This document shows positions 25,507-51,178 of a stretch of 64,000 bases of DNA, in pieces. The stretch is taken from assembly GCA_963707025.1 (NCBI GenBank), contig CAVPOM010000015.1:64001-128000 (forward strand), read 5' to 3'. The stretch's first letter is position 1, and each line of letters opens with the position of its first letter. Made by a program: the position numbers and the translations under genes. The notes under the pieces are model-generated. The model searched no databases, was not told the origin of the DNA, and worked only from the letters and a program-made list of their open reading frames with translations. Source of the stretch: an uncultured Verrucomicrobiae bacterium. GTDB lineage: Bacteria > Verrucomicrobiota > Verrucomicrobiia > Limisphaerales > Palsa-1400.

Positions 25507-26435
25507 GGCTTTGATGGTAGCTGGGAACGCCACCTTTTGCAATGCAGAGGCCCATATCCCCGCCGGAACACCAAAACGCTTTTCCCCTTCACCCTCTAAA
25601 AAGCGTTCTCGTGTCACGGCCCCAGGCCGGACTGTTTTCAATTCTCCACGCGCGCGCCCTTTTACCCCCGCGCTCCGTTCCGAATTGCAAACAGACCGGC
25701 ATTGGAAAAGGCGGTGCAGTCGCGCCACCCAATTCCGTTGAGCAGGCGCTACTCAACAGTTGGCCGCGATTCTCGCCGGTTTACCCGAAAGCCAAACCCT
25801 CAAGAAATTCCTCGTCTCCAAAATCCGCCCCGGCCACTGTGGCTGCGCAGCTATCCTCGAACTGGAAGAAGCGGCATAAACGTCCACTTTCCAGTATCTG
25901 AAAAAAAGTGGCGATTTTCCGGTTGACTTAATGAACAGGCATATAATGGAGGTATGTTTGATTTTGCGATTACAATGTGGCTTGGAGGGAAAGACGCCGG
26001 CGCTTACGTTGGCCCTTCCCGCGATTGGGTAGAGACCTACGCGGCTCCTCCTGTCCCCGCTTCTAGTCTTGGTGCCGATCCAAACACGGGGCGCGAGATC
26101 AACCTACCCCGTCTTTCTCCAAAGGAGACATCCCGAAAGGACTCCTACGACGGTAGCGGACCATGGCGGTTGATTCAGTGCCCTGCGGGGAGAATTGCGG
26201 GGAAAGTTTCAGGCGTTGACGACAAAAACGCCCAAATCAGCTTTGTTTTGAGAGAACAGCCTGATGTAAAGGAAGACTTTCACCAAGCGGATAATTACGC
26301 CAAACAGAATTGTAATATGTTGTGGCAAAGCATGTTACAAAGTTGCGCTGAACCCATGAAACGCATACAAACCATCGCGATTGACCCGAACCATCGCGTC
26401 TGCGGGGTGATTTGCCGGGACAAAAGGAGGCTTTT

Positions 26436-27680
26436 ATGGCGTGGGTAGAAAAGGGTCCATCAGGGACTTACATCGGGAGAGGCCGGGACAAATATCAGAT
26501 CGGCTTCGAATTTGATACCAAGGTGCCCATCGAACCCGAAAACGCAGACCCGCAGGATCTCCCGGCGGCGCGAAAGGAGAACCACGAACGAGCCCAGGAA
26601 TCCGCAACGATCATGGAACGCTGGGTTCGAGGGAAAATCCCCAAAGAGGAGTTCCTGGCTAAGATGGGCTACGTCGCCGACCGGGTCACAGGTCAGGCCA
26701 CCAAAACAGCCATATCGCTGTACCTGGTCCGCTGGCTTTGGGAGTGGTGCGTCAGGAATCGGCTGCATCACAGCAAAGTCCTGAAGCTCTGCCGCCTCTT
26801 CAACAGCCTGCTTGATAACCTGGGCGGCCTCGCTCACAAAGACGCGAAGACTCTCAACGCCAAACACCTGGGTAATTTCATCTTCACCCGCCGGGCCGAG
26901 GGTTATTCCCCTGCGGTCATCAATGACGACATCAATTATCTGAAGACCATGGCTCGAGACCTCGAACGCCTTACCGGCATCAATGTGGCCGAGTTGTTGG
27001 AAGTAGAAGCCCAAGAGACGCAAGAAAGGCTTCCCTACAAGTGGTCTGAGATTTTGAGGATATTTGAAGCGCTTGATTCTCTTGGACAACTTGGCCGTGA
27101 ATGGAAGACCCTGCTCATGATCATGTTGTATACGGGTCTTCGCCCCTGCGATGCCGCCTTGGTCACGCGGAAGCAGATTGATATCGAGATGCAGTTGATT
27201 CTGGTTGATCCCAGCAAGGTGCGCCGCTACAAAAATGGCAAGAGTCCTCCCAAACCGCTTCACGATGCACTTTTTGTTTACCTGGACGACCTGCTGAAGA
27301 GATTTCCGCTGGAGCCTGACGAGTTCCTCTGCCTCAATTGTGCAAACCGCAGCACAAAGTCGATCACCTACTCCTTCAATCAAATTCTCAAAGCTGCCGG
27401 CGTGTCCCAGTCCGTAATCAAAACGGATTATCTTCAAGGAAAGTTCAGCCAAAAAACACTCTACTCATTTCGTCATACTTTCAACCTCTTAATGACCGCC
27501 GTCGGCGCGGACAGAAAGGAACGCAAGACAGAAATGGGTCAGAAAACGGATGAAGCACAGGGTTACTATGAGCATGACCAGGAACCCGAAGTCATTGCGA
27601 CGCGCCGCAAATTGCTCAACCTGTTGCCGCGCGTGCCCATATCCGTTGGGGACGATACTCGGATTTCCGAAAAAACATGA
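26436..27680 (+). CDS. Tyrosine recombinase/integrase with non-canonical catalytic box II
   Basis: GGAGG RBS, YTGLRPCD (Arg I), LYSFRHTF (Tyr at the usual His), MGQ...AQGYYEH (catalytic Tyr region). Confidence 0.85.
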   Translation: MAWVEKGPSGTYIGRGRDKYQIGFEFDTKVPIEPENADPQDLPAARKENHERAQESATIMERWVRGKIPKEEFLAKMGYVADRVTGQATKTAISLYLVRWLWEWCVRNRLHHSKVLKLCRLFNSLLDNLGGLAHKDAKTLNAKHLGNFIFTRRAEGYSPAVINDDINYLKTMARDLERLTGINVAELLEVEAQETQERLPYKWSEILRIFEALDSLGQLGREWKTLLMIMLYTGLRPCDAALVTRKQIDIEMQLILVDPSKVRRYKNGKSPPKPLHDALFVYLDDLLKRFPLEPDEFLCLNCANRSTKSITYSFNQILKAAGVSQSVIKTDYLQGKFSQKTLYSFRHTFNLLMTAVGADRKERKTEMGQKTDEAQGYYEHDQEPEVIATRRKLLNLLPRVPISVGDDTRISEKT

Positions 27681-28259: not shown

Positions 28260-28404
28260 GAGAGCCATTATACATATGACTGAAGATTCAAAAACAAGAT
28301 TGACCACATGTTCAAACCTGCCCCATAATCTGGCACTCCGCGGTCAGTCTAATGCTGTGCTGGCACCTCGGAAATGTGGGGTCTCGATTCTCGTCGCCAA
28401 TAAA

Positions 28405-29330
28405 CAATAACAGGCGATGTTCCACTTTGTTCCATTTGCTGGTTCCGGGAGGGAAGTGCCAGACCGCAATCGCCAGACCGGTCTGGTCGGCCAAGCGGTG
28501 CAACTCCCATTTCCACAAGCGCAAGCGATATTCATTGCTGCCGCCTCCGTCAGCCGTGATCAGCAAGCGGGTCGCCGTAGGATACAACTGGCGTCCTTCG
28601 TGGCGCTTCCATCCGCGGATGGAAGCCACCGCAAAGGCGGCGGTGCCGTGATCGGTCCCCACATTGACACAGCCGGTGTTGTGCCCAAATCATAGATGCC
28701 GTAGGGATAGGCGCACGGCAATGATGGCTCTTGGAAATCGTGGCCCTTGACCCGTTCGGCGGCCTTCTTCCTGCGCCCCTGGCGCCCTTCATTCTCGAAG
28801 TTGCCCACCAGTTCCTTTTTCTTGGTGTCCACCGAAATCACCGGCCAACCCTGCCCAAGCGCCCGCCGCACTTCCTTGTTGATGTGCCGGAACTGCGCAT
28901 TCCGGTCAGGATGATCCTACCCCTCTTCGGTCTTGCGGTTGCCCTGCAAACCATGGTCCATGTCCCGAAGCAGTTGCGCTACCTTCTGGTGGCTGATCGG
29001 GTGTTGGTGACCGGTCAGTTCGTAGGCCAGCGCCCGGGTGCTTTTGCACTTCCAGCACAGCGGCGATTCCAGATCGCACGCGTCAGCGGCTCCACCAGAG
29101 ATGCCAGCAGGCTTGGCAGCGCGAGATTCCGCACCGTCAGTCGCCAACGCCCGCCTCCCCAATGACGGGTGCGGTCGTCAGGCAACGGTGGCGCGGCCAG
29201 TTCGTTGATCCCTTTGGTAATCGTGACCCGATACAAGCCGCAGGCACGGCTGATTGCCGCCTTGGCGACTGTCCGAGACTCGAATGTCCACCGGGATCGT
29301 CGCCATCTTTTATCGAGCGCCCGCGGCCAG
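28405..29330 (-). pseudogene. ISAzo13-family transposase, fragmented
   Basis: ESPLCWKCKSTRALA, LQGNRKTEEG, PVISVDTKKKELVGNF, LLITADGGGSN, HFPPGTSKWNKVEHRL spread over several frames with stops. Confidence 0.88.
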
Positions 29331-29426
29331 TACGCTGACGGGCGCATTTCTTTTTATCTCGCGCAACTGTTTTGACTGCTGGCGGTCTATTTTCGTTGCC
29401 GAAAGGCAGTCAAACAAAATCTCCTT

Positions 29427-29750
29427 ATGAAGACAAAAACTCTGGAAATTGCGGTCGATGAACCGCAGAACATTGATTATCCGAATTGCTACGCGGCGAT
29501 TCCGCCCAACGGCAAGGTGTGCGGTCACACCGGATTGAGGCACACGCACTTGTACACAATGCTCGCGGTAGGAGGTGCTGCGCGACCTTACGTCCGTGTC
29601 GTGAACCTGCGGGAACCCGGCGCGAGCAAGGGCAAAACTATATTCCATGTCGGCGATTTTTTCCGCTACCTGGATTGGAATGCCCGGCAACAGGGTTCTG
29701 GCGAGCAACGCTCCGTCATCCAGGATCAGGACGTCCCCAAAAGCCCGTAG
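29427..29750 (+). CDS. Small excisionase/AlpA-like DNA-binding protein
   Basis: TGLRHTHLYTML...VRVVNLREPGASKGKTIFHVGDFFRYLD resembles winged-HTH excisionase-like proteins. Located in the integrase island. Confidence 0.5.
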   Translation: MKTKTLEIAVDEPQNIDYPNCYAAIPPNGKVCGHTGLRHTHLYTMLAVGGAARPYVRVVNLREPGASKGKTIFHVGDFFRYLDWNARQQGSGEQRSVIQDQDVPKSP

Positions 29751-29799
29751 ACCGTCCTCGATGACTTTCCAAGTTTCGCCAGCCGGATCCAAGGACGTT

Positions 29800-30045
29800 G
29801 GGGGACGAGACGCCAAGGCGATCCTCATGGCCGCCAAGGGCCTGCGGAAGGACCAGATTGCCGACCGGGTTTCGCTGCCACGACAGATTATCAGCAAGTG
29901 GCGCAAACGCTTCATCGAGGAACGCCTGGACGGTTTGAAAAATCTTCCCCGTCCCGGGCGTCCACCCGTTTTTCCCCCTGAACTGGTCATGCAGGTCAAA
30001 GCCCTGGCGTGCGAGCTGCCCCATCAACACGGCCTGCCTCCGTCC
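29800..30045 (+). pseudogene. IS630-family transposase N-terminal HTH fragment
   Basis: AILMAAKG...IA.RV...ISKWRKRFIEERLDGLKNLPRPGRPPVF...VKALACELP. Confidence 0.8.
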
Positions 30046-30412
30046 GGCGCCTTCACTCATTACGTGCATCGAGAGAAGGTTTTTCCCGATTCGTCGTTCC
30101 GTTCGGCTTAAGATCGTCTGATCCATGATCACGGTTTGCGGGCCGGTCAAATCGAATATCTGCACCTGCTCAAACTGGCGGCCGAACTGGGCGAGTCGGC
30201 CCTCAGCGCCCTGGTCAGCGAATAGGCTGGGCCGAGCCGATCGGGCCGATGGCGCGCGGCGGATTTGCGGCGTTACTTGAACTTGGACACCGACCCCCGC
30301 TGGGGGGAGATGACGCTGGAGCCGGAACTGAGCGGCTACGACGCGTTGCTGGAAAGGCAGGTGTCCCATGAATAGCGACCCGCTGGCCTTGCTCCTAAAA
30401 TCCTTTCGCCTA
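30045..30412 (+). pseudogene. IS21-family IstA C-terminal / IstB N-terminal remnant
   Basis: PGAF.HY.HRE..FP...FR, EYLHLLKLAA, ELSGYDALL, followed by overlapping MNSDPLALLLKSFRL. Contains stops. Confidence 0.6.
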
Positions 30413-30740
30413 GCTGGCCGTCCGCGTCGAGGTCCCTTGGGGGATGAAGCCGGGAAATGAACGACCCCGTTGCAGCGCACCCTACTGATCAAGTGACGGC
30501 CCTGAGCGAGCAAGCGCCGGGCGAATTTGGCGGCGGCGTAATAGGCGTCGGCCACCACCGTCACCGGCTAGTCCCAGGGCAAGCCCACGAGCAAGGCCGC
30601 CAATTTATCCAGCAAGGTGCGCCGGTCGCGATTGCTCCAGACCACCCCCTTGTGAAGAATGCGGACGGCCATGGGGACGGCCAGATTAACCCCCGCCGCC
30701 TGCGCCAAGTCCGCAACGGCCTGTATGGAATGGCTCATGA
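30413..30740 (-). pseudogene. IS4/IS701-like DDE transposase fragment
   Basis: VVADAYYAAAKF...HLISRVRCNGV...KGPRRGRP. Confidence 0.65.
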
Positions 30741-35113: not shown

Positions 35114-36340
35114 CTAGCGTCCGGCCGCAGAGGTCTTTCCGCAATTCTCCAAAACCACGGCGATGCCTTGCCCGACCCCGATGCACATGGTGCAGAGGGC
35201 GTAGCGTCCGCCGGTTCCGGACAGTTGATGGGCTGCGGTGGTGAGCAGGCGCGCCCCGCTCATCCCCAGGGGATGGCCCAGGGCAATGGCGCCGCCTTGC
35301 GGATTGATGCGCGCATCGTTGTCGGCCAGGCCCAATTGGCGGGAGCAGGCCAGCGCTTGTGCGGCGAAGGCCTCGTTCAACTCAAGGATGGCCATGTCGC
35401 CCAGCGCAAGTCCGAGTCGCTCCAGCAGTTTGCGGGTGGCCGGCACCGGGCCGATCCCCATGATGGTCGGCGCTACTCCGGCGACGGCCGCCCCTAAAAT
35501 GCGCGCGCGCGGAGTCAGTCCATGCCGGGTTACCGCGCTTTCGGAGGCGATCAGCAACGCGGCGGCCCCGTCGTTGATGCCGGAGGCATTGCCGGCGGTG
35601 ACCGTTCCTTGCGGGCGGACGATGGGCTTCAATTGCGAGAGTTTTTCCAGGCTGGTGGCGCGGGGATGTTCGTCCTTCGCCACGAGGATGGGATCCCCTT
35701 TGCGCCGGGGGACCGCGACCGGGATGATTTCCGCGGAGAGACGGCCATCGGCCTGGGCGGCGGCGGTTTTTTCCTGGCTCCACAGGGCGAAGCGATCCTG
35801 GTCTTGCCGGCTGATGGAAAACTGGCCGGCCAGATTTTCCGCCGTTTCCGGCATGGTTTCGATGCCGTAGCGTTCCCGCATCCGTTGATTGACAAACCGC
35901 CAGCCGATGGTGGTATCGTAAATCTCCGGCTGTCGCGCAAACGCGGCCGTGGCCTTGGCCATCACGAAGGGCGCGCGGGACATGCTTTCCACACCGCCGG
36001 CGATGAGAAGCTCGGCCTCTCCCGCGACAATGGCGCGGGCGGCGCCGGCCACGGCTTCCATCCCCGATCCGCACAACCGGTTGACGGTGCAGCCGGAAAC
36101 CGTTTCCGGCAACCCGCAAAGGAGCGCGGCCATGCGCGCGACATTGCGGTTGTCTTCACCCGCCTGGTTGGCGCATCCCAGAATGACGTCATCCACCGCG
36201 GCCCAGTCCACGGCCGGGTTGCGCTCCATGAGCGCTTTGATCGGGAGGGTGGCCAAATCATCCGCCCGGATGGCGGCCAGGGCTTCCCCGTAGCGGCCGA
36301 CCGGGGTGCGGATGGCGTCGCAGATAAAGGCGTGTTTCAT
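35114..36340 (-). CDS. pcaF: 3-oxoadipyl-CoA thiolase
   Basis: AFICDAIRTP, GCANQAGEDNRNVARM, NRLCGSG, DTTIGWRF, NEAF, GHPLG, CIGVGQG. These fit the PcaF/PaaJ subfamily. Confidence 0.9.
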   Translation of the reverse strand: MKHAFICDAIRTPVGRYGEALAAIRADDLATLPIKALMERNPAVDWAAVDDVILGCANQAGEDNRNVARMAALLCGLPETVSGCTVNRLCGSGMEAVAGAARAIVAGEAELLIAGGVESMSRAPFVMAKATAAFARQPEIYDTTIGWRFVNQRMRERYGIETMPETAENLAGQFSISRQDQDRFALWSQEKTAAAQADGRLSAEIIPVAVPRRKGDPILVAKDEHPRATSLEKLSQLKPIVRPQGTVTAGNASGINDGAAALLIASESAVTRHGLTPRARILGAAVAGVAPTIMGIGPVPATRKLLERLGLALGDMAILELNEAFAAQALACSRQLGLADNDARINPQGGAIALGHPLGMSGARLLTTAAHQLSGTGGRYALCTMCIGVGQGIAVVLENCGKTSAAGR

Positions 36341-37695
36341 GCTTTTTTGCCGGTGAGTTGCTCCGCGGCGGCCAGCTCGGCTGGCATCGCTTTGATCTTG
36401 CGGAAACCAGAGAGCAAGACCTCGGTCAGGCGGTCAATTTCCGGCTGGTTCATTGGGGTGGAAAGTGTCCCGGAACAGGTGCTGATCAAAATGATCCCTT
36501 CCTCCAGCGCGTGTTCGATCAGCGCCCGGACCAGCCGGGCCTCCCCGGCGGTGACATAGCTTTCCCGATAGTTTCTCGGAGGCCTGGTCTTCATGTGAAT
36601 GCGGAAAATGGAGCCGCCTCCCGTAACGCACGCCGGAATCCCGGCGCTGCGGATGGCCTCGCCGATTTGACGGCGCGCCACTGCCCCAAGGCGATTGAGG
36701 TTGGCAACTCGTTCGCGGTCGAAGTATTCCATGGCGGCCAGTCCCGCCGTCATCGTGATGGGGTTGGCGGAGAATGTCCCAGAGTGGGGAAAGAGAACCT
36801 TTTCCGCAAGCGGATTAAAAACCTCCATCACCTCCTTGCGGCCGGTGACCGCCCCGACCGGGAAGCCGCCTCCGATCATTTTGCCCAACGCGGTCAGGTC
36901 GGGCCCCTCCGGGAACCACTCCTGTGCCCCCCCATAGGCCGAGCGGTAGGTGATCACTTCGTCGAAAACCAGGAGCGCGCCGTGCTGTTGCGTCCAATTC
37001 CGCAGCGCCTCGATAAACGGCGCCCCCGCCGGGATGAATCCAACCCGATGGGGCATGGGATCCACCAGCACGCAGGCCAGCTCCCCGGCGTGGCGGTCCA
37101 GAATGGCCAGCGCGACTTCCGGATTGTTGAATGGGATGACGATGACCTCATCCAAGGCGGAACGCGGCGTGCCTTGCGCCACCGCAATGCTGCGCGGTTG
37201 TTTGGCCTCGCCCCAATTGGCCGGCTGCGCGGTCTGGCTTACCTCCGCATAATCATACAGACCGTGATAGGCGCCCTCCACCTTGGCGATCTTGGGCCGC
37301 CCCGTGTAGGCGCGCGCCGCCTTGAGGCAGCACATGACAGCCTCCGTGCCTGAATTGACGAAACGGATCTTCTCGAAACCCTTCGTGCGCCGGGTCATGT
37401 GCTCGGCCAGTTCAACTTCAACTTCCGTGGCGAAGGTGTAGCCGGTACCTTTCTGCAATTGCCGGGTCACTGCCTCCACAATCACCGGGTGAGCATGGCC
37501 GTGGATGAGCGAAGCCATGTTGTTGGCGAAGTCAATCCGGCGATGGCCTTCCACGTCGGTCAGATAGCATCCCTCGCCCTTGGACGCGTAGAGCGGATAA
37601 GGACGCCGCAACACCGTGTTGCGGCTCACGCCGCCGGGCAGAACGCCCAGGGCCCGTTCATAAATCTGCCGGCTGCGTGAATAATCGTGCGTCAT
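36337..37695 (-). CDS. Class III PLP aminotransferase (GSA-aminomutase-like; putative beta-amino acid aminotransferase)
   Basis: From MTHDYS: PGGVSR, RFVNSGTEA, YHG, FDEVIT, LGKMIGGGFPVGA, HSGTFSANP. ATGA-coupled on both sides. Confidence 0.9.
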   Translation of the reverse strand: MTHDYSRSRQIYERALGVLPGGVSRNTVLRRPYPLYASKGEGCYLTDVEGHRRIDFANNMASLIHGHAHPVIVEAVTRQLQKGTGYTFATEVEVELAEHMTRRTKGFEKIRFVNSGTEAVMCCLKAARAYTGRPKIAKVEGAYHGLYDYAEVSQTAQPANWGEAKQPRSIAVAQGTPRSALDEVIVIPFNNPEVALAILDRHAGELACVLVDPMPHRVGFIPAGAPFIEALRNWTQQHGALLVFDEVITYRSAYGGAQEWFPEGPDLTALGKMIGGGFPVGAVTGRKEVMEVFNPLAEKVLFPHSGTFSANPITMTAGLAAMEYFDRERVANLNRLGAVARRQIGEAIRSAGIPACVTGGGSIFRIHMKTRPPRNYRESYVTAGEARLVRALIEHALEEGIILISTCSGTLSTPMNQPEIDRLTEVLLSGFRKIKAMPAELAAAEQLTGKKA

Positions 37696-38411
37696 AGACT
37701 GGGAACGGTTCCCGCCGCCGATCGTTCCGCGAGTGCCGCGGTCCGCCCATCCATCAAGGGTGCGGCGGTCTTTTCCTGCACGGCGCCAAACTCCAGGCCC
37801 GGCGCAATCCTGCGCGCCACCAGCCCGGCGGGGGTCACGTCTATGATGGCCAGGTTGGTGTAGATTCGGTCCACCACGCCTTTGCCGGTCAAGGGATAGG
37901 TGCAGGCGGCCACGATCTTTGGTTCGCCATTTCGGGTGGTGTGTTCGGTCAGGACGAAAATCTTTTTCACCCCCGCCACCAAGTCCATGGCCCCGCCCAC
38001 TGCCGGAATGGCATCGGCGGCGCCGGTGGACCAGTTGGCCAGATCGCCTTGGGCGGAGACTTGCATGGCGCCCAGCACGCAAAGATCAATGTGCCCGCCG
38101 CGAATCATGGCAAAGCTGTCGGCGTGATGAAAATAGGCGGCCCCGGCAATGGCCGTCACCATCTTTTTGCCGGCATTGATCAACTCAGGGTCTTCCTGGC
38201 CGGGCGCCGGCGCCGGTCCCATGCCGAGCAGTCCGTTCTCCGTTTGGAATATCACCTCGCGTCCGGCCGGCACGAATTGGGCCACCAATTCCGGCAGGCC
38301 GATGCCCAGATTCACGCACGCCCCATCCGGAATGTCCTCCGCCACCAGGCGGGCCATTTCCTCCCGGCCCCACTCGGGGCGACATTTGCCGGGTGCCGTT
38401 ACGGGTAGCAT
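37692..38411 (-). CDS. pcaJ: 3-oxoacid (3-oxoadipate) CoA-transferase subunit B
   Basis: VNLGIGLP, TENG (catalytic Glu), SFAMIRGGHID, GDLANW, IPAVGGAMDL. Confidence 0.88.
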   Translation of the reverse strand: MLPVTAPGKCRPEWGREEMARLVAEDIPDGACVNLGIGLPELVAQFVPAGREVIFQTENGLLGMGPAPAPGQEDPELINAGKKMVTAIAGAAYFHHADSFAMIRGGHIDLCVLGAMQVSAQGDLANWSTGAADAIPAVGGAMDLVAGVKKIFVLTEHTTRNGEPKIVAACTYPLTGKGVVDRIYTNLAIIDVTPAGLVARRIAPGLEFGAVQEKTAAPLMDGRTAALAERSAAGTVPSL

Positions 38412-39109
38412 GGGCCCTCCTTGACCAGTTGGGATTCCTGGACCGGGCTGGCTACGACGACCAGACGGCTGACAAAAATTCCGGGTGTGACCACCGTTTC
38501 GGGATCTATTTCACCCGCCTCGACCAACTCCTTGACCTGCGCGATCGCCGTTTTTGCGGCCATGCACATAATGGGGGCAAAATTGCGCGCCGTTTTGTTG
38601 TAAACCAGATTGCCATAGCGATCCGCCCGGGCGGCCTTGACCAGTGCGAAGTCCGCGCACAGGCCATGCTCCATCACATATTCCTGGCCTTGGAATCGGC
38701 GCGATTCCTTGCCGGCCGCCAGCAGTGTGCCGACGGAGGAAGGGGTGTAAAAGGCCGGGATGCCCGCCCCGCCGGCCCGGATGCGTTCGGCCAGGGTTCC
38801 TTGCGGCACCAGCTCCAGCTCGATTTCTCCACGCCGGTAAAGTTCGGGAAAGACCGTCGAATTAGCGCTGCGCGGATAGGAGCAGATCATCTTGCGAACC
38901 TGCCCGTGGGCGATCAACGCCGCCAAGCCCACCCGCCCGCTGCCGGTATTGTTGCTGATCACCGTCAGATGGCGCGCCCCGTGGTCGTACAAGGCGTGAA
39001 TCAGCTCAATCGGGCTGCCAGCTTCGCCAAAGCCGCCAATCATCACCGTCGCCCCATCCGGAATGTCGGCGACGGCGGCGGCCAGCGATTCAACCCGCTT
39101 GTTGATCAT
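38399..39109 (-). CDS. pcaI: 3-oxoacid (3-oxoadipate) CoA-transferase subunit A
   Basis: MINK, GGFGEAGSP, SNN.G, ICSYPRS, PQGTLAERIRAGGAGIPAF, ARNFAP. Confidence 0.88.
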   Translation of the reverse strand: MINKRVESLAAAVADIPDGATVMIGGFGEAGSPIELIHALYDHGARHLTVISNNTGSGRVGLAALIAHGQVRKMICSYPRSANSTVFPELYRRGEIELELVPQGTLAERIRAGGAGIPAFYTPSSVGTLLAAGKESRRFQGQEYVMEHGLCADFALVKAARADRYGNLVYNKTARNFAPIMCMAAKTAIAQVKELVEAGEIDPETVVTPGIFVSRLVVVASPVQESQLVKEGPCYP

Positions 39110-40767
39110 CGTCCTGCCTTTGCGGCGTGGGCGGTTGCCCTGGCCCGCCCGGCCCGGGGAAAGTGTTTGCGATGAATGCCGCTCAATTCACTCTCAATCC
39201 CTTTCAACTCGTTTTCGAAAAAGAATTTCGGCGTGTCCAGCGGAACCAGTTTGTCCACCCGCGTTTCCTTCGCGTCGTACTTCGCCAGAAAAACCCGGTC
39301 CATCCAGGCCATGTTGCGGCTTTCGTTGAATTTCAAGGCAAAGACTTTCTCCCCGCCGACTTCGGCGGTGCCCAGAAGGGAGACCTTGCCCGCCGAGCTG
39401 GTCATCGTGATATAGCGCGACGGGCGGTGCAGCGAGGCCAGCGAACGGTAGATGAGGTTGAACACCTTTTCAATATCCGCCAGCGGCGCGGCGAAGTAAT
39501 GTTGCTCGCCGGTGGGGCGCGCGCAGTACATGGCATGAAAACGAACCGAGAGCGCGGCCAGAATGTGGGCCAAATCAATCCAATTCCGCGCCGACCGTTC
39601 CACGTTCACCCGGCCGTTCTTGTCCATGAACAAGCTGACATGGTTCATGATGGGACTTTGGCTGCGCACCACCACGCCGTGGTTTTGCAGCCGGCGCAGG
39701 GCGGCCAGGGTGCTCGGATTGAGCACTTCGCGCGGAGTCGAAAAGTGAGCCATCCAGCAAAGCTGCACCCCGTTGTCGCGGAGCGTATCGAACAAGGCCA
39801 GCATCGGGTCATACTCGTGGCTGAGGATCAGCCCGGGCTGGTAAGTCAGCAGGCGTGAGCCGAGCCGGACGGCCCGGATGTGGAGCAATTCGGGATCTTC
39901 GAGGATGGGCCTCACATATTGGCGCAGGCGTTCCACCGGCAGATAACCCGCGTCCCCCCCGGTGATCAGGATGTCGGTCACCTCCGGATGCGCCCTCAGA
40001 TATTTATGGACCTGGGCGATGTCCTCCTGGATGAACATGTCGTGATCGCCCCGCACCTGCGCATGGCGGAAACAATAGGTGCAATAGGCGAAACAATTCT
40101 GCGTGGTCTGATCGAAAATGAGTTGGCACTGGGGGTATTTGTGCTGGCTGCCATCAAGAATTTCTATGCCCCCTTCTGCCGCCTCCAGCCACGGCTTGTT
40201 CAGCAACTGTTTGCCATCGTGCGGATTAGTCTCCTCCATGTAATCCTCCACCACCTGCTGTCGTTGCTCCTCCGTCCTGGCCGCCACGTAGGCCTCCGTC
40301 ACTTTCTTCCCCATCATGCCCGGCTGGGGGAAGACGAGCTGATACATGGAATCCTGTTCATACTGGTCCCAGTTGATGCTGTTCAAAATGTGCCGGGAGG
40401 CCTTGAACCGATAGACTTCCACGAAAAGCTCCCGTTCCGGGATGTGGCCGGGCTGGATGCCGTTTTTTGCCAGAAGCCTGACCACTTCCCTGAACCCCTC
40501 CAAGCCGGAGTATTGTTCCCGGTCGTGGAAGAGAAAGGGCCGTGATTCGAGAAGCCCGGAGTGCTCCGGGTAGGTGGCCTGCAAACGGCTCAAGACCCCG
40601 GCAGGCAGGAGCCTTTCGGATTGGATGATCTGACGGGTTTCCTCCGGGTAGCCGTAGCGATCCAGCATCTTGGCGACATCGGCTGCCGTCACCGTGTCCG
40701 TGACTTTGGCCGGGATCGTCCCGGCCTTGCGGGAGTCGGATCTGTTTCCGTTCAACGCCATCTTCAT
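39106..40767 (-). CDS. KamA/lysine-2,3-aminomutase-family radical SAM + PLP enzyme
   Basis: QHKYP, CFAYCTYCFR (CxxxCxxC), DILITGGD, RLGSR, MAHF..PRE, RSQSP, SAGKV (probable PLP Lys). Probable start MKMALNG. Confidence 0.9.
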   Translation of the reverse strand: MKMALNGNRSDSRKAGTIPAKVTDTVTAADVAKMLDRYGYPEETRQIIQSERLLPAGVLSRLQATYPEHSGLLESRPFLFHDREQYSGLEGFREVVRLLAKNGIQPGHIPERELFVEVYRFKASRHILNSINWDQYEQDSMYQLVFPQPGMMGKKVTEAYVAARTEEQRQQVVEDYMEETNPHDGKQLLNKPWLEAAEGGIEILDGSQHKYPQCQLIFDQTTQNCFAYCTYCFRHAQVRGDHDMFIQEDIAQVHKYLRAHPEVTDILITGGDAGYLPVERLRQYVRPILEDPELLHIRAVRLGSRLLTYQPGLILSHEYDPMLALFDTLRDNGVQLCWMAHFSTPREVLNPSTLAALRRLQNHGVVVRSQSPIMNHVSLFMDKNGRVNVERSARNWIDLAHILAALSVRFHAMYCARPTGEQHYFAAPLADIEKVFNLIYRSLASLHRPSRYITMTSSAGKVSLLGTAEVGGEKVFALKFNESRNMAWMDRVFLAKYDAKETRVDKLVPLDTPKFFFENELKGIESELSGIHRKHFPRAGRARATAHAAKAGR

Positions 40768-41190
40768 AGCTTGTGTTTTGTGTCTGGCAACTGCCCGATT
40801 TTGCTCACGCGGGGCCAGCCGATTTGCCCCGCGGCACTCACCTTGCACGGGGCGGGCGCAGTATCAGGTTGGATCAAATATACGCAGCCTGAGCCGAATC
40901 ACTTGCCCTCGGTTGGCAAAAGCCTACCATTTTTTGGCAGGCCGGAAAATCCTGATTTCAATCCCATTCCCAAGCTCAATCCCAATGCCAATCCCGTTAA
41001 ACTATTCCCCCGGAACGCCGATGATTATCCATGGCGACGACCATCATGGCTCAATGGACCATGTCGTTGCTAAAACAGCGGGCGATATGAACGTTAAAAC
41101 GAGCGAAGAGGGCTTGGGTTCATTGGAACGAAGTGTTTGGACGGTCGAGGCGGTTGCCTCCCGGTGCCGAGAGACTTGCCCATCATTCCC

Positions 41191-42108
41191 ATGAACTCGC
41201 CCAGCCCAACGAGAGACTATCTGGATGACGTGGTGCGAAAGATTCACAATTCGCGTCAAGTCATTCTCAATCCAGCCGAACGCTACTTGAATGGCGTTGC
41301 CAGTCTGCCTCCGGCCCCGATGCTCATGACCGAATTGCTGGCTCTGTTCCAGGACCCTGACCGCGATGTGGACCACGCTGTGGAACTGATCAGTTACGAG
41401 CCTGTCTTAACGGCCCAGATTCTTCGCACCTGCAACAGCGCCTGTTTCGCCGGCGAGCAGCGCCCCGGGGACATCTTTGAGGCCGTTTCCAGAATTGGGT
41501 TTTACCAGGTTTACTCCCTGGTGGTTTCCATTTTTGGCGCCAGGGCAAAATCCATGGAGGGAGCCGACCAGGGGGTGAAGGTGGACGAGTTATGGCGTCA
41601 TTCCGTGGCGGTCGCCGTGTCGGCTGCCGCGGTGGCGGAGGAAACCGGGCAGGCCAAGACGGTCGCTTTCACGGCGGGGTTGTTGCACGACATTGGCAAG
41701 CTGGTGCTGGCTTCGGCTGAGCGCGAGCGTTACGCCCGATTAATTCAAAGCGCGAAAGACCAGGGCCTGGCCTTGAGCGCGTTGGAACGCTCCGCCTTGG
41801 GAACGGACCATGCCGAACTGGGCGGTGAATTGATGAGCCGCTGGAAATTGCCGCCGGATGTCGTCGCCGCCGTCCGCCATCACCACGACCTTGAGGCCCC
41901 GCCGCCCTACGGCGAGTTGACCGCGGCCGTGCAGGTCGGGGACATGATCGGGCATCAACTTTTCGCCGATGATCTGGCCAACACCGCCTTTTTGCCAACC
42001 TCGCCAGCCTCCCTGGAGGCGCTCCAACTCAGTCCCGGCGCAGTTCCCCGCCTCCTGGCCAAAACGCAAGCCGAGATGGAAAAAGTCAAGGGCATGCTGG
42101 AGATATAA
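41191..42108 (+). CDS. HDOD-domain signalling protein
   Basis: LPPAP, EPVLTAQILRTCNS, LWRHSVAVA, AFTAGLLHDIGKL, HAELG..L..WKLP, HHH. Confidence 0.92.
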   Translation: MNSPSPTRDYLDDVVRKIHNSRQVILNPAERYLNGVASLPPAPMLMTELLALFQDPDRDVDHAVELISYEPVLTAQILRTCNSACFAGEQRPGDIFEAVSRIGFYQVYSLVVSIFGARAKSMEGADQGVKVDELWRHSVAVAVSAAAVAEETGQAKTVAFTAGLLHDIGKLVLASAERERYARLIQSAKDQGLALSALERSALGTDHAELGGELMSRWKLPPDVVAAVRHHHDLEAPPPYGELTAAVQVGDMIGHQLFADDLANTAFLPTSPASLEALQLSPGAVPRLLAKTQAEMEKVKGMLEI

Positions 42109-42201: not shown

Positions 42202-42302
42202 AATTGAGAATTGAAAATTGACAATTTGTCATCGGTCATTGCGCGGTCCGGGAGGTGGTTTTCAATTGCCAATGACCAATTTTCAATGATCAATTCTCAA
42301 TC
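42202..42302. repeat. Inverted pair of heptamer arrays (AATTGAN / NTCAATT) between convergent genes
   Basis: AATTGAG AATTGAA AATTGAC ... TTCAATT GCCAATG ACCAATT TTCAATG ATCAATT CTCAAT. Confidence 0.75.
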
Positions 42303-42354
42303 CGAATCGGCCTTGCTCCAAAAGCAAAATCGGAGGTTATTCTTGCACGCATCC

Positions 42355-43408
42355 TTACCTGGCCCAGCCGCAGGTTTGGGCCAGACAGATCAGGCCGTAG
42401 GCCAGCAGAGCGGTGGCCGGAATGGTCATCACCCAGGCCCATAAGATGCGTTCGACTAATTCCCAGTTCAGGGCATTGAATCGGCGGGCGCAGCCCACAC
42501 CCATGATGGCCGTGGTGATGGAATGGGTGGTGGAGATGGGCAGGCCCAGCTCGCCGGTCACCAGCAGCAGGGTCGCGGCGGTGGTCTCGGCGGCGAAGCC
42601 ATGCACGGGACGCAAACGGACCATTTTGCGGCCCAGCGTTTGAATGATGCGCCAGCCCCCGATGTAGGTGCCCAGGGCCATGGCCAAACCGCAGGACCAT
42701 TTCATCCAGGTTTTGATTTCGAAATCCGGGCAGGAGAGAAAATTCAGCCAATGGGGCAGTTGCCGCAGGCCGCCGTTTCTGCTGGCGACAAAGCAGGCCA
42801 GGGCCACGATGCCCATGGTCTTCTGGCCGTCGGCGAAGCCGTGCGACCAGCCCATGTAGGAAGCGCTGACCAGTTGCAGCTTGCCAAAAAGCGCATCCAC
42901 CAGACGCGGACGCATGGAGCGAATGATGACAAACAGCAGAGTCATGACCAGCATGCCGCCGGCGAACCCGATGAGCGGGGACGCCAGCATGGGCACGACG
43001 ACCTTGTGATAGAAAAGCCGGCCATTTAATCACTTGCCAGTGGTTGTGGGCGGAGGCCAGGGCGGCGCCGATCAGTCCGCCGAAGACCGCATGGCTGGAA
43101 CTGGAAGGCAGTCCAAAATACCAAGTCAGAACGTTCCAGGCGATGCCGGCCAGCATGGCGCAAAAGATGGTGTCGGTGGTGATGAACTGGGAATCCATCA
43201 AATCGGCTCCGATCGTGGTGGCCACGGCCACGCCGCACAGGGCGCCGAGAAAATTGGTGATCGCGCCCAGGGTCACGGCCTGGCGCGGGGTCAGGACCCG
43301 GGTGCCCACCACGGTGGCGATGGCGTTGGCGGCATCGTGAAAGCCGTTGGTGAAGGTGAACCCCAGCACGGTCAGGTTGACCAGCAGGAGGAGAATAACC
43401 GGTTCCAT
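42355..43408 (-). CDS. pit: PiT-family inorganic phosphate transporter (frameshift near 43010)
   Basis: NGFHDAANAIATVV and GLPSSSSHA in one frame. HGFADGQKTMG, GGWRII and PISTTH in the next. Confidence 0.9.
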
Positions 43409-46489: not shown

Positions 46490-47796
46490 GTAGAGTAGGC
46501 GGGGTGCGCATGGCAGCCCCGCCCCTCGTCGAACCGGACGTGCGGCTTTTCCGCATCCGGCTCTCATGCAGTCTGTCGCCTCTGGCATTCACAGGCTGAT
46601 TAACCCCATTCGATTGAGATGTTCATAGAAGCTCATCCCCGCCGGGGGACGATAGCCGCGCTGGCTCCTGCGTTGGAGATGATACGTCAGCCGTTGCCGA
46701 ACGTACGAGTTGATCTGCCGATACGCCTTGCGCGGATACCCCAGACTGAAATACTTCCCCCATCCGCGCAGATGCCGGTTGATCGTCCTGGTCAGTTCGG
46801 GCAGGGGCGTGTGGCACTGTTCCGGCCCGGTCATCCGCCGCAACGCTTCCCGCTCGCGGGCCAATGCTTTGGCCGATGGTTCCAGGTTCAGATACCGGTA
46901 GTTGCCGCCGTGGAGGTCTCGATCAAACCGAAAGGTGTAGCCCAGAAAGTCCAGGCTCGCCTTGGGTTCTTTGAGTTCCACCACCCGCGTCTTTTCCCGG
47001 TTCACCGTCAGGCCCAACCACCCTTCCAGCTTGGCCTCAAGGAAGCCCCGCAGCCGCTGGCTTTGATACCGCGCCAGCACCACAAAATCGTCCGCATACC
47101 GCACCAGCTTGGCTTTGGCCCATTGGGCCGGCCCGTCGGCGCGTTGAAACGCTTTGTCGAACCAGTGCAGGTAGATGTTCGCCAGCAGCGGCGAGATCAC
47201 CCCGCCCTGCGGGGTGCCCCGCTCGTTGCGCTGGACTGTGGGCGACCCTCCCTCCTTCTTCTCCACTACCGGAGCTTGCAGCCACATCCGTATCAGGCGC
47301 AGCACCGCCCGGTCCACCACTCGCATCCGCACACAGGCCATGAGCTTGTCATGCGGAATGGAATCGAAGTAGCCCTTGAGGTCGGCATCATACACCGCGC
47401 AGTATCCGGCCTTCAGATGTTCTTGGATTTCCCGCAACGCCAGATGCGCCGAGCGCCCCGGCCGAAATCCGTAGGAACATTCTTCAAAGTCCGCTTCAAA
47501 GATCGGCTCCAGAATCAGCCATGTGGCCGTCTGGACGACCCGGTCGCGTACCGTCGGAATGCCCAGCGGCCTCAGTTTCCCGTTGGCTTTGGGGATATAC
47601 ATCCGATAAGTTGGCCACCTTCGTTTACGTGTAACGAGGCTCATTTCGGTTCGCTTTCGCTACAGCTCGGCGCGCGCTTCCCGCAGCTTCCGCGCCGGTG
47701 TTGCCACCGCCGCGGTGCGGGTCGCTTCATGTTTCATGGACTCTTACATGGCTCACCTCTCAGTTCGCACGATCAACCAGACTTCGCCTGGCGCAC
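46490..47796 (-). mobile_element. Group II intron (class IIC-like), internally deleted
   Basis: 5' end GTGCGCCAGGC at 47796. Domain V/VI GAGAGCCGGATGCGGAAAAGCCGCACGTCCGGTTCGACGAGGGG...CTACTCTAC ends at 46490. Total length is only about 1.3 kb. Confidence 0.9.
46589..47606 (-). pseudogene. Group II intron reverse transcriptase/maturase, N-terminally truncated, no endonuclease domain
   Basis: [77 protein letters not shown]. Confidence 0.92.
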
Positions 47797-48792: not shown

Positions 48793-50365
48793 ATGCATCT
48801 CTCAACCCTCCTCGACACACTCGGCTACACCGGTTCTAGAAATTTTCTCCAGCGAGGAACGGCTGCCTTTGATCGTGCGCCGGATATTGGGCATATCCTT
48901 CGGACGGCTGCGCGGCGCCGGGCATGCCGGCTTGAAGGTGTTTATTCGCTGCGTCCATTCAACGACGAAGGATCGCCAGTTCCGGTTGTTTATGTCTGCG
49001 AAGCTGATGACAGCGCAGCAGCGGACAAAATTCATGCCCTTGTCTGGAACCAAGATATCGTTCCCTTCGTCCTTGTTCGTACGCCTGCTGGCTTGCGGCT
49101 TTATTCCGGGTTCGAGTGCAAGCACGCAGGGACTCACGAACGCCAGGGCATCCTCGAACCTTTGATTCAGTTCAATGAAGTTGCCGACCGGCTTGCCGAA
49201 TTCCATGCGAGCGCAATTGATTCCGGAGAACTCTGGCGCAGGCGTGGAGACGACGTTCAGCCCGACAAACGTGTTTATTGGAGCCTGCTGGACAACCTTA
49301 AACAGCTCGCCAAGAAATTCGCTGCCGAGTTCGGAGCAGCAAAGGCGAAAGCGGTTATCCATCCCCTCATCGGGAAATACGTCTATCTCTATTATCTGAA
49401 GGACCGCGGATTTCTCTCTCGGCGGCGGCTGGTGGAATGGGAAATCGAACATGACTCCGTTTACGGTCGCAACGCTACTTTGGCCGGACTTCGTGCCGTC
49501 TGCGGTAAACTGGACGGCTTCCTCAACGGTCGCGTCTTCCCGCTAAAGCTCCATGGCGAAAGCGCGCCTACGGAAGAGCAAATCCAGCGTATTGCTGGGG
49601 CTTTTGCTGGCGATACGTTCGCTGGCAGTTGGCAATTTCATCTTCCATTCACTGCATTCAAGTTCGATTTCATCCCCATCGAGACACTTTCGATGATTTA
49701 CGAGCAGTTCCTCCATCTCCCGGACAAACCTGACGCGGACGACGAGGACGAGCACAGCGAGGGGCGCAAGGCCGGCGCATATTATACGCCCATCCCGGTA
49801 GTCAACTACATGCTCGCCGAAATGGACCGGCGACGGCGCCTTCTGCGTGGTGTCCGAGTGTTCGATCCCAGTTGTGGATCGGGCGCGTTTCTCGTGCAGT
49901 GCTACCGGCGACTTATTGAGCGCGAGTTTATTGCGCACAAAAAGAAGCCTGCTCCGCATGAACTCGCCACGTTGCTGAAGCGCCACATCTTTGGCGTCGA
50001 TATGGATGAGGATGCCTGTAGCGTCGCCGAATTCAGCCTTTATCTGACGCTGCTCGACTACGTGGAACCCAAGGACCTCATTGACCATCCGCGTTTCCGC
50101 CTTCCAACTCTGCGGAAAAACAACATCTTCTGCTCCGACTTCTTCAAGGTGCTGCCTTTCAAGACGAAGTTCCACTGGATTGTAGGAAATCCACCCTGGA
50201 AAAAGCTCATTCCGCATAAATTGGAAAAGCGCGATAAAGGTGCATTGCAATGGATGAAGAAAAACGCCGCCCTTATGCCGGTGGGTGACAATTCTCTTCT
50301 ACAGGCCTTCGCATGGCGCTGCCGCGAGTTTGTGACCGCAGATGGTGGCTGCGCATTGCTTGTCC
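48793..50365 (+). pseudogene. N6-adenine DNA methyltransferase (type IIG/Eco57I-like R-M protein), truncated by an IS3 element
   Basis: IPIETLSMIYEQFL, GAYYTP, FDPSCGSGAFL, IFGVD, VGNPPW. Runs directly into IS3 orfB sequence. Confidence 0.88.
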
Positions 50366-51178
50366 ATCCCAGCACGTAACGACTCCACCAATCCATCACC
50401 GCCACCAAATACATAAACCCAGTTGCCATAGGCACATACGTAATGTCCGAACACCAAACCTGATCCGGTCCCGTCACTGCCAAATTGCGTAACAGATACG
50501 GATAAATCTGGTGCCCCATCTCCCGCAGACTCGTCTTGGGCTTGGCGTAAATCGCCTCGATCCCCATCAACCGCAGCAGCCGCACCACCCGTTTGCGATT
50601 GATGGTCAAACCCTCCCGGCGCAACAGCACGGTCAGTTTGCGGCTGCCATAAACCGGGTGGTCCAAATGCATCTGGTCCAACCGCCGCATCAGCGCCAGG
50701 TTCTCCTCTGTCTCCGGACAGCACTGGTAATAATAACTGCCACGGCACACCGCCAGCAGCTCGCACTGGCGCCGCACGCTGAGCTGCGGATCGGGAGCGA
50801 TTAAACATGTTAAAGCCCCAGTTGCCTGGACTTTTTTTTAAGCCAGTCCAAGTCCACCGTCAGTTGGCCAATCTTCTCATGCAGTTGGGCAATCAACTGT
50901 TCCTGATCCTCCGTGCGGGGTTGCCCGGGCTCAAACAATTCGGGCATGTGATCCCGAATCGTCGCCCGCCACTGCGTGACCTGCGCCGGATGCACCGCAT
51001 ACTCTCGCGCCAATTGCGCGACCGTCTTCAGCCCCACCAGGGCTTCGAATCCCACTTTGGCCTTGAAGGCCGCACTGTGTCTTTTCCGTTTTGCTTTCAT
51101 AAGTCTGCTCTTTCTTATCTACAGCAAACCGGCAAAAATCGAAACTTACCTGTGGTCTAAAAATAGGGGTCCAGCTCA
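50366..51178 (-). mobile_element. IS3-family element, partial (left end, orfA 50810-51100, truncated orfB)
   Basis: Terminus TGAGCTGGACCCCTATTTTTAGACCACAGG at 51178. orfA has RKRHSAAFKAKV...LDWLKKK. orfB has YGSRK, NRKRVVRL, WCSDITY, YLVAVMDWWSRYVLGW and then breaks off. Confidence 0.92.

Follow-up and report, generated by a model that had tools for sequence, protein, structure and literature searches.

An arginine in the side-chain pocket of a radical-SAM aminomutase encoded with PcaIJF-like enzymes: a predicted 2-aminoadipate 2,3-aminomutase in an uncultured Verrucomicrobiae bacterium

Introduction

In the lysine 2,3-aminomutase (LAM) of C. subterminale, we take the aspartates D293 and D330 to be the ligands of the side-chain amine of lysine, and R134 is presumably the ligand of its alpha-carboxylate. 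The window, that is, the whole stretch of 64,000 nucleotides of DNA from an uncultured Verrucomicrobiae bacterium analysed here, codes for an apparent distant relative of this enzyme, with an arginine at the first of these aspartates and no acidic residue at the second. The question raised by this locus is which amino acid such an enzyme would act on. An earlier reading made from the letters of the DNA (the sequence-only reading) proposed that the substrate has an acidic side chain, and that the pocket thereby supports 2-aminoadipate or glutamate independently of the gene context. The features of the locus are collected in Table 1.

Table 1. Coordinates in the window of the aminomutase gene, its motifs and the genes that follow it.
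Feature	Position	Strand	Remarks
KamA-fold radical-SAM/PLP 2,3-aminomutase, predicted 2-aminoadipate 2,3-aminomutase	39106..40767	-	~553 aa
CxxxCxxC cluster motif (C223, C227, C230) and R232	40066..40095	-	R232 is the counterpart of LAM R134
MYCARPTGEQHYF	39493..39531	-	R415 (codon 39517-39519) in the LAM Asp293 column
YITMTSSAGK	39385..39414	-	T452 (39406-39408) in the LAM Asp330 column; K459 (39385-39387) in the K337 column
3-oxoacid CoA-transferase subunit A, PcaI-like	38399..39109	-	TIGR02429, 352 against a cut-off of 128.5
3-oxoacid CoA-transferase subunit B, PcaJ-like	37692..38411	-	TIGR02428, 294 against 243.55
Class III aminotransferase, beta-amino-acid type	36337..37695	-	HemL models below cut-off; best solved match 6K8H
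3-oxoadipyl-CoA thiolase PcaF	35114..36340	-	TIGR02430, 682.5 against a cut-off of 597

Results and discussion

The aminomutase gene and its fold

The longest form of the aminomutase reading frame (39106-40848, minus strand) opens at a GTG at 40848, and the likely start is the ATG at 40767 or that at 40761; for this choice, homologues at 90% identity have a length of 553 residues. Residues are numbered here from the ATG at 40761 (551 aa). The nearest named genome loci are those of Verrucomicrobiota. All six KamA-type NCBIfam models match the protein weakly, each below its own cut-off: the broad KamA model TIGR00238 at 63.3 bits (cut-off 199.2), the LAM model TIGR03820 at 59.5 bits (525.4), the EpmB model TIGR03821 at 46.9 bits (369.3) and the glutamate 2,3-aminomutase (EAM) model TIGR04368 at 53.7 bits (650), with the score for the BlsG model TIGR04468 likewise below its cut-off of 600. 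Judged by these scores, the protein is too divergent for the curated model TIGR00238.

An AlphaFold model built with 108 sequences as input (pLDDT 86.6) matches LAM (2A5H) with a Z of 27.3 and an rmsd of 3.8 over 329 aligned residues at 18% identity, and the next entry has a Z of 11.5. On this model, the protein is a KamA-fold radical-SAM/PLP protein and a distant relative of LAM, for which a 2,3-amino shift is predicted. The residues C223, C227, C230, R232 and K459 are each found in 108 of 108 aligned proteins. This set consists of the protein of the window and 107 of the best 120 of 1909 matches, with 13 near-duplicate or short matches left out, and all of its members are at least 63% identical. 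Shewanella atlantica and Photobacterium atrarenae are among the organisms named in these matches.

The register of the pocket residues

Both pocket motifs, MYCARPTGEQHYF and YITMTSSAGK, lie where the sequence-only reading had placed them, in a single minus-strand reading frame. Its alignment by eye, which set an arginine at the first aspartate of LAM, concerns a region where direct comparison is difficult: phmmer and hmmsearch alignments to 2A5H end short of the pocket, and hhalign of the aminomutase family against the LAM and EAM profiles slips by one residue, placing A414 on D293 and R415 on L294. Despite this slip, R415 is assigned to the D293 column because the profiles of a bridging, methanogen-type clade align without gaps on both sides (with the aminomutase family, Arg on Arg, at a profile-profile probability of 99.95; with LAM, Arg on Asp), and because the secondary-structure offsets are identical. 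Indeed, in the models of this protein and of a control, a LAM-like protein of the same genome, R415 and the control aspartate are both preceded by a helix that ends 12 residues before and a strand from 8 to 2 residues before, and are followed by a helix 12 residues after. The spacing of Y412, R415, T452 and K459 is the same as that of Y290, D293, D330 and K337 of 2A5H (taken from its alignment to the Bacillus-type AblA), the pocket region is gapless in a 25-row alignment, and H230 and Q258 of LAM also have counterparts. In these alignments, the register of R415 with Asp293 is thus settled by the bridging clade, in agreement with the placement made by eye. A one-residue indel between the bridging clade and the family lies near the D330 column, which leaves T452 or M453 in that column; neither is acidic, as had been claimed for the second motif. 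The accompanying statement that EAM lacks both aspartates is correct as to their absence and needs the addition that lysine and asparagine occupy those columns.

Pocket charge and substrate

Asp293 is retained in 2A5H, in E. coli EpmB, in BlsG and in 16 of 16 LAM-like proteins, which comprise four references and 12 of 30 loci of the phylum, with one of them, L054, shown to exceed the TIGR03820 cut-off. It is also retained in the enzymes of a streptothricin-type cluster (L051, so called from its neighbours vioC, vioD, a carbamoyltransferase and a glycosyltransferase) and of a hydrazine-type cluster (L050). LAM-like genes with both aspartates are common across the phylum; the one in the genome of the window, L039 (C3:122198-123277), has both and scores 491.6 bits with TIGR03820, whose cut-off is 525.4.

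The EAM references come from a pattern scan of metagenomes, with a motif that stops short of the 293 column. Lysine, asparagine and lysine occupy the 293, 330 and 337 columns in 60 of the 80 metagenome loci listed, and all 12 of the EAM-like proteins that were scanned (of 55 full-length ones) pass the TIGR04368 cut-off and have lysine in the 293 column. In 151 genomes of the phylum, no protein exceeded the TIGR04368 cut-off, and the loci that scored highest were LAM-like. An arginine in the 293 column is found in L042, the enzyme of a macrolactam cluster that is called IdnL4-like from its neighbours; in excerpts of PMC11284099, feeding and knock-out experiments connect IdnL4 with the conversion of glutamate to beta-glutamate, without in vitro activity. 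The reference set was assembled without VioP, CmnP, IdnL4 itself and the methanogen EAM of Tunckanat 2022.

Given that arginine replaces Asp293, and that the charge at this position follows the substrate in the references (aspartate with lysine or arginine, lysine or arginine with glutamate), the substrate of the aminomutase is likely to have an acidic side chain, as the sequence-only reading had proposed. Every lysine reference examined has Asp293, so that the arginine, which would have spoken against this proposal had it occurred in verified lysine enzymes, was found in none of them. The second motif is not diagnostic, since BlsG, with a basic substrate (arginine), keeps Asp293 and has lost Asp330, with a threonine in the region of the second motif; for this reason, an acidic substrate cannot be deduced from a missing Asp330.

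Two otherwise similar gene clusters, L047 (9004-18991) and L050 (3949-17896), carry an Arg-type and an Asp-type aminomutase, respectively, and have in common genes for a lysine N-hydroxylase, a tRNA-ligase-like protein, an ATP-grasp protein, a GNAT protein and an MFS protein. From this likeness, lysine could be the substrate of some Arg-type enzymes, and the pair is a case in nature against which the charge rule can be tested.

Distribution of the arginine

Within the 108 proteins, R415 and K459 are invariant, and column 452 has threonine in 93 and serine in 15. Of 38 genome loci, 36 have the R-(T/S)-K pattern, and two are truncated at contig ends. Outside the family, arginine is common to 42 of 68 relatives (61 of 150 representatives with a length of 380-620 aa, and seven plasmid proteins), and among the methanogen-type KamA proteins, whose named matches are all of Methanomicrobiales type, QCRPxxG is found in 118 of 120 and the arginine in 119 of 120. 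The notion that the arginine is special to the operon family is ruled out by these counts. In a quick tree, the aminomutase family falls inside the Arg clade, apart from the branch of LAM, EpmB, BlsG and EAM, and the 37-row group that holds the IdnL4-like L042 has an SH-aLRT of 100; the family shares with this clade the arginine in the 293 column, RxTG, R449, M453 and GK. By this distribution, the arginine is ancestral to a wide clade and inherited, and is not an adaptation of the aminomutase family. Because it is inherited by so wide a clade, the pocket cannot name the acid and, as aligned here, does not tell glutamate from 2-aminoadipate. What stands of the sequence-only reading is therefore the acidic substrate; its claim of support for 2-aminoadipate independently of the neighbouring genes does not, since the arginine is widely shared.

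Against 39 Arg-bearing sisters, the family has invariant private changes near the arginine (F408, H409, S410, Y412, H233 and R303), as expected if its substrate differs from that of the sisters, and these residues are candidates for setting the chain length. Within the Arg group, one subclade with good support (P0146, P0170, P0171, P0189, P0191, P0198, P0205 and P0222) has a third type of pocket, perhaps for a neutral or aromatic substrate: its 293 column holds serine, aspartate or phenylalanine, and its QHKY and GK motifs are both altered.

The operon

The four genes downstream of the aminomutase are joined by overlapping stop and start codons, with the start of CoA-transferase subunit A overlapping the stop of the aminomutase gene. 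Of the 27 loci whose downstream sequence extends for 4.2 kb or more, 23 have all four partners, and in the other four, which belong to Bacteroidota, pcaF alone is missing. Among the taxa in which the loci are found are Verrucomicrobiota, Bacteroidota, Planctomycetota, Gammaproteobacteria, Marinimicrobia, Sumerlaeota, Eisenbacteria and Fibrobacterota. The CoA-transferase models are subfamily-level only, and subunit A is 64% identical to the subunit of a Rhizobium IclR-A-B-pcaF cluster and 41% to a Bacillus Yod-type subunit. The thiolase scores above the cut-off of the PcaF equivalog, which points to a six-carbon 3-oxo diacid, and falls short of the acetoacetyl-CoA thiolase models.

The best solved match of the aminotransferase is StoTA (6K8H, E 3e-122), and its R25 aligns with R36 of that enzyme; this arginine is kept in 25 of the 25 loci (of 38) caught by the pattern. 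In excerpts of PMC10589169, StoTA is described as active on beta-amino acids, with R36 as a possible ligand of the carboxylate of the substrate. A HemL identity was ruled out, given that the HemL models remain below cut-off, and excerpts of PMC3149608 report earlier cases of HemL-like genes that are misannotated beta-transaminases.

Across the 38 loci, neither a lysine acetyltransferase gene nor ring-cleavage genes recur, and four loci are flanked by BCCT transporter genes. In scans for promoters and terminators, the matches did not exceed the number expected by chance. Head-to-head with the operon is a gene for an HD-domain (HDOD-like) protein (41137-42108, plus strand), which is also found in L019 only, at 82%. 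Further along are a PiT-family phosphate transporter gene, apparently split over two frames (42290-43408 and 42355-42996, minus strand), and an adjoining PhoU-like gene (TIGR00153, 43415-44041). The flanks at 46589-47644 (minus strand), 26412-27680 (plus strand), 28300-30600 and 50058-51100 were seen by eye to hold a reverse transcriptase of the group II intron type, a tyrosine integrase and several fragments of transposases.

A Mesorhizobium plasmid (L220:5157-10008) carries the closest plasmid transaminase (59%), followed by a CoA-transferase gene and preceded by a ferredoxin and a 476-aa 'hypothetical protein' with CxxxCxxC and a weak likeness to the aminomutase (E 7e-9, 20%). By its gene content, this stretch reads as another and more distant instance of the logic of the operon.

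Genes leading from lysine to 2-aminoadipate

In the closest fully flanked relative (L001), whose aminomutase is 85% identical, genes for a lysine 6-transaminase (564 against a cut-off of 521) and a P6C dehydrogenase (792 against 730) lie head-to-head with the operon, 551 bp upstream of it and facing away. Such adjacency is found in this one of the 38 loci only. The genome of the window, which is 88% complete, has a lat-pcd pair in tandem at C7:263904-266798, split over several frames through either assembly error or decay.

P6C dehydrogenase is matched in seven of seven related carrier genomes (five over the cut-off, two partial); of the non-carriers, 8 of the 17 within their family have a match, and 0 of the 16 outside it. 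These carriers are kin and not independent. Among all 37 carrier genomes, 15 have a P6C dehydrogenase over the cut-off and 29 a match at E 1e-100, five of which (350-390 bits) are probably other dehydrogenases; eight carriers, including all four gammaproteobacterial ones, gave no match at that threshold. For HglS, one of the 37 carriers has a full-length match and eight have split matches, which alone is not informative. The best plasmid match of the CoA-transferase (71%) is on a Tistrella plasmid (L218:1-7391), beside a P6C dehydrogenase, a DUF1338 protein and an aminotransferase; no aminomutase or thiolase is listed in that stretch.

The proposed route and its alternatives

It is the pocket that says acidic, and it is from the neighbouring genes that the chain length comes. 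2-aminoadipate is favoured because of the conserved operon with PcaF and the lysine genes of L001, and not because of the pocket. By analogy with known enzymes, we regard it as probable that the protein is a 2-aminoadipate 2,3-aminomutase that feeds 3-oxoadipate to the formation of succinyl-CoA and acetyl-CoA. Its substrate would be derived from lysine by the preceding action of lysine 6-transaminase and P6C dehydrogenase. As in LAM, SAM cleavage would give the 5'-deoxyadenosyl radical, which would take the C3 hydrogen from the substrate-PLP aldimine, and the amino group of L-2-aminoadipate would move to C3 to give 3-aminoadipate, with Arg415 expected, by the same analogy, to hold the side-chain (C6) carboxylate. 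The transaminase of the operon would then convert 3-aminoadipate to 3-oxoadipate, which the PcaIJ-like transferase would activate with succinyl-CoA, and PcaF would split 3-oxoadipyl-CoA into succinyl-CoA and acetyl-CoA, closing the CoA cycle.

Certain observations speak against 2-aminoadipate: the long arginine might suit the shorter glutamate better, lat and pcd are adjacent in 1 of 38 loci and are frameshifted in the genome of the window, P6C dehydrogenase exceeds the cut-off in only 15 of 37 carriers and is unmatched at E 1e-100 in 8, and pcaF is missing in 4 of 27 loci. Glutamate is the sole acidic substrate with evidence in the aminomutase family at large, and the nesting of the operon family in the Arg clade with the IdnL4-like L042 (SH-aLRT 100 in the quick tree) would be in line with a glutamate 2,3-aminomutase, from which beta-glutamate would pass to 3-oxoglutarate and on to malonyl-CoA and acetyl-CoA, or to acetoacetate by decarboxylation. 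We consider this unlikely, given that the thiolase matches the PcaF equivalog and fails the acetoacetyl-CoA thiolase models, that lat and pcd adjoin the operon in L001, that TIGR04368 scores 53.7 against 650, and that the changes around the arginine are private to the family. If the substrate were another acidic amino acid, such as 2-aminopimelate or an aminoadipate with a modification, the Pca-like enzymes would be adapted to a 3-oxo diacid of a related kind. We hold this to be rather improbable in view of the match to PcaF and of the lysine-to-aminoadipate genes, which adjoin the operon in L001 and have matches in most of the carriers; what favours such a substrate is that arginine fits any carboxylate, that the CoA-transferase models stop at the subfamily, that eight of 37 carriers gave no aminoadipate source and that BCCT transporter genes are found at four loci.

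As in the Bacillus-type cluster of KamA, class III aminotransferase and CoA-transferase, which has the same gene logic, the substrate could still be lysine or an N6-acyl-lysine, if the arginine were structural. Family members are labelled 'lysine 2,3-aminomutase' in the sources, and the likeness of the L047 and L050 clusters points the same way. Nonetheless, the presence of Asp293 in every lysine reference, the absence of a recurring lysine acetyltransferase gene in the 38 loci and a separate LAM-like gene with both aspartates in the same genome make this very unlikely. The same 2-aminoadipate chemistry could also run biosynthetically, from succinyl-CoA and acetyl-CoA through 3-oxoadipate and 3-aminoadipate to 2-aminoadipate, given that sequence fixes no direction and that all four reactions of the route are reversible in principle. 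The condensation by the thiolase is unfavourable and the linked genes of L001 are catabolic lysine genes, and we hold this direction to be highly improbable.

Significance

Were the catabolic route from 2-aminoadipate correct, it would give radical-SAM aminomutases a new substrate, 3-aminoadipate a metabolic origin, PcaIJF a role outside aromatic degradation and lysine carbon an anaerobic exit. The link between lysine and 3-oxoadipyl-CoA would be of interest for bio-based adipic acid, a use for which excerpts of PMC7241714 report no known enzymes deaminating lysine, beta-lysine or 2-aminoadipate. The charge swap is already precedented in glutamate aminomutases and is thus less surprising, and the 293 column would provide a simple marker for correcting annotations. 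In the literature searched, which is largely open-access, no description of a 2-aminoadipate 2,3-aminomutase was found. We lean, if only slightly, towards the broader proposal that this is the first such enzyme and catalyses the central step of a so far undescribed route that needs no oxygen, leads from lysine-derived 2-aminoadipate by way of 3-aminoadipate and 3-oxoadipate to succinyl-CoA and acetyl-CoA and is present in many bacterial phyla, and that thousands of 'lysine 2,3-aminomutases' with an Arg pocket are mutases of acidic amino acids, in which the residues before the arginine set the chain length.

Comparison with known systems

With LAM (C. subterminale, 2A5H) and E. coli EpmB, the aminomutase shares the fold, CxxxCxxC and the counterparts of R134, K337, H230 and Q258; it differs from both in having arginine and threonine for Asp293 and Asp330 and a longer N-terminus, and its family has F-H-S/A in place of P286-Y287-Y288 of LAM. 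The clostridial EAM (TIGR04368) has, as here, a basic residue in the 293 column and a neutral one in the 330 column, although these are lysine and asparagine in EAM and arginine and threonine in the aminomutase; because the quick tree places EAM with LAM in one branch, its charge swap looks separately acquired. The IdnL4-like L042, whose likeness to IdnL4 is drawn from neighbouring genes and not from comparison with IdnL4 itself, belongs to the same Arg clade (about 33% identical) and shares R415, T417, G418, R449, M453, G458 and K459; unlike the aminomutase, it stands in a biosynthetic PKS context, has about 440 aa and carries PYYxF where the aminomutase has FHSMY before the arginine. BlsG (TIGR04468) resembles the aminomutase in the lost second aspartate and the threonine in that region, whereas it keeps Asp293 and has a basic substrate.

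The Bacillus yodT-yodS-yodR-yodQ-ablB-kamA cluster and the route of N6-acetyl-beta-lysine degradation follow the same logic of beta-shift, class III/HemL-like beta-transamination, CoA transfer and thiolysis; excerpts of PMC6522883 list the function of the KamA of this cluster as undetermined. The Kat variant of lysine fermentation, as described in excerpts of PMC3149608, also joins a beta-shift with transamination, CoA transfer and thiolysis. Those systems use an Asp-type LAM on lysine, whereas here an Arg-type enzyme is found with PcaF and with no acetyltransferase. With the beta-ketoadipate pathway, the locus shares PcaIJ and PcaF, as its CoA-transferase subunits A and B and pcaF are 64%, 55% and 65% identical to the Rhizobium A-B-pcaF set; in contrast to that pathway, ring-cleavage genes do not recur at these loci, and it is the aminomutase and the transaminase that would feed PcaIJ and PcaF.
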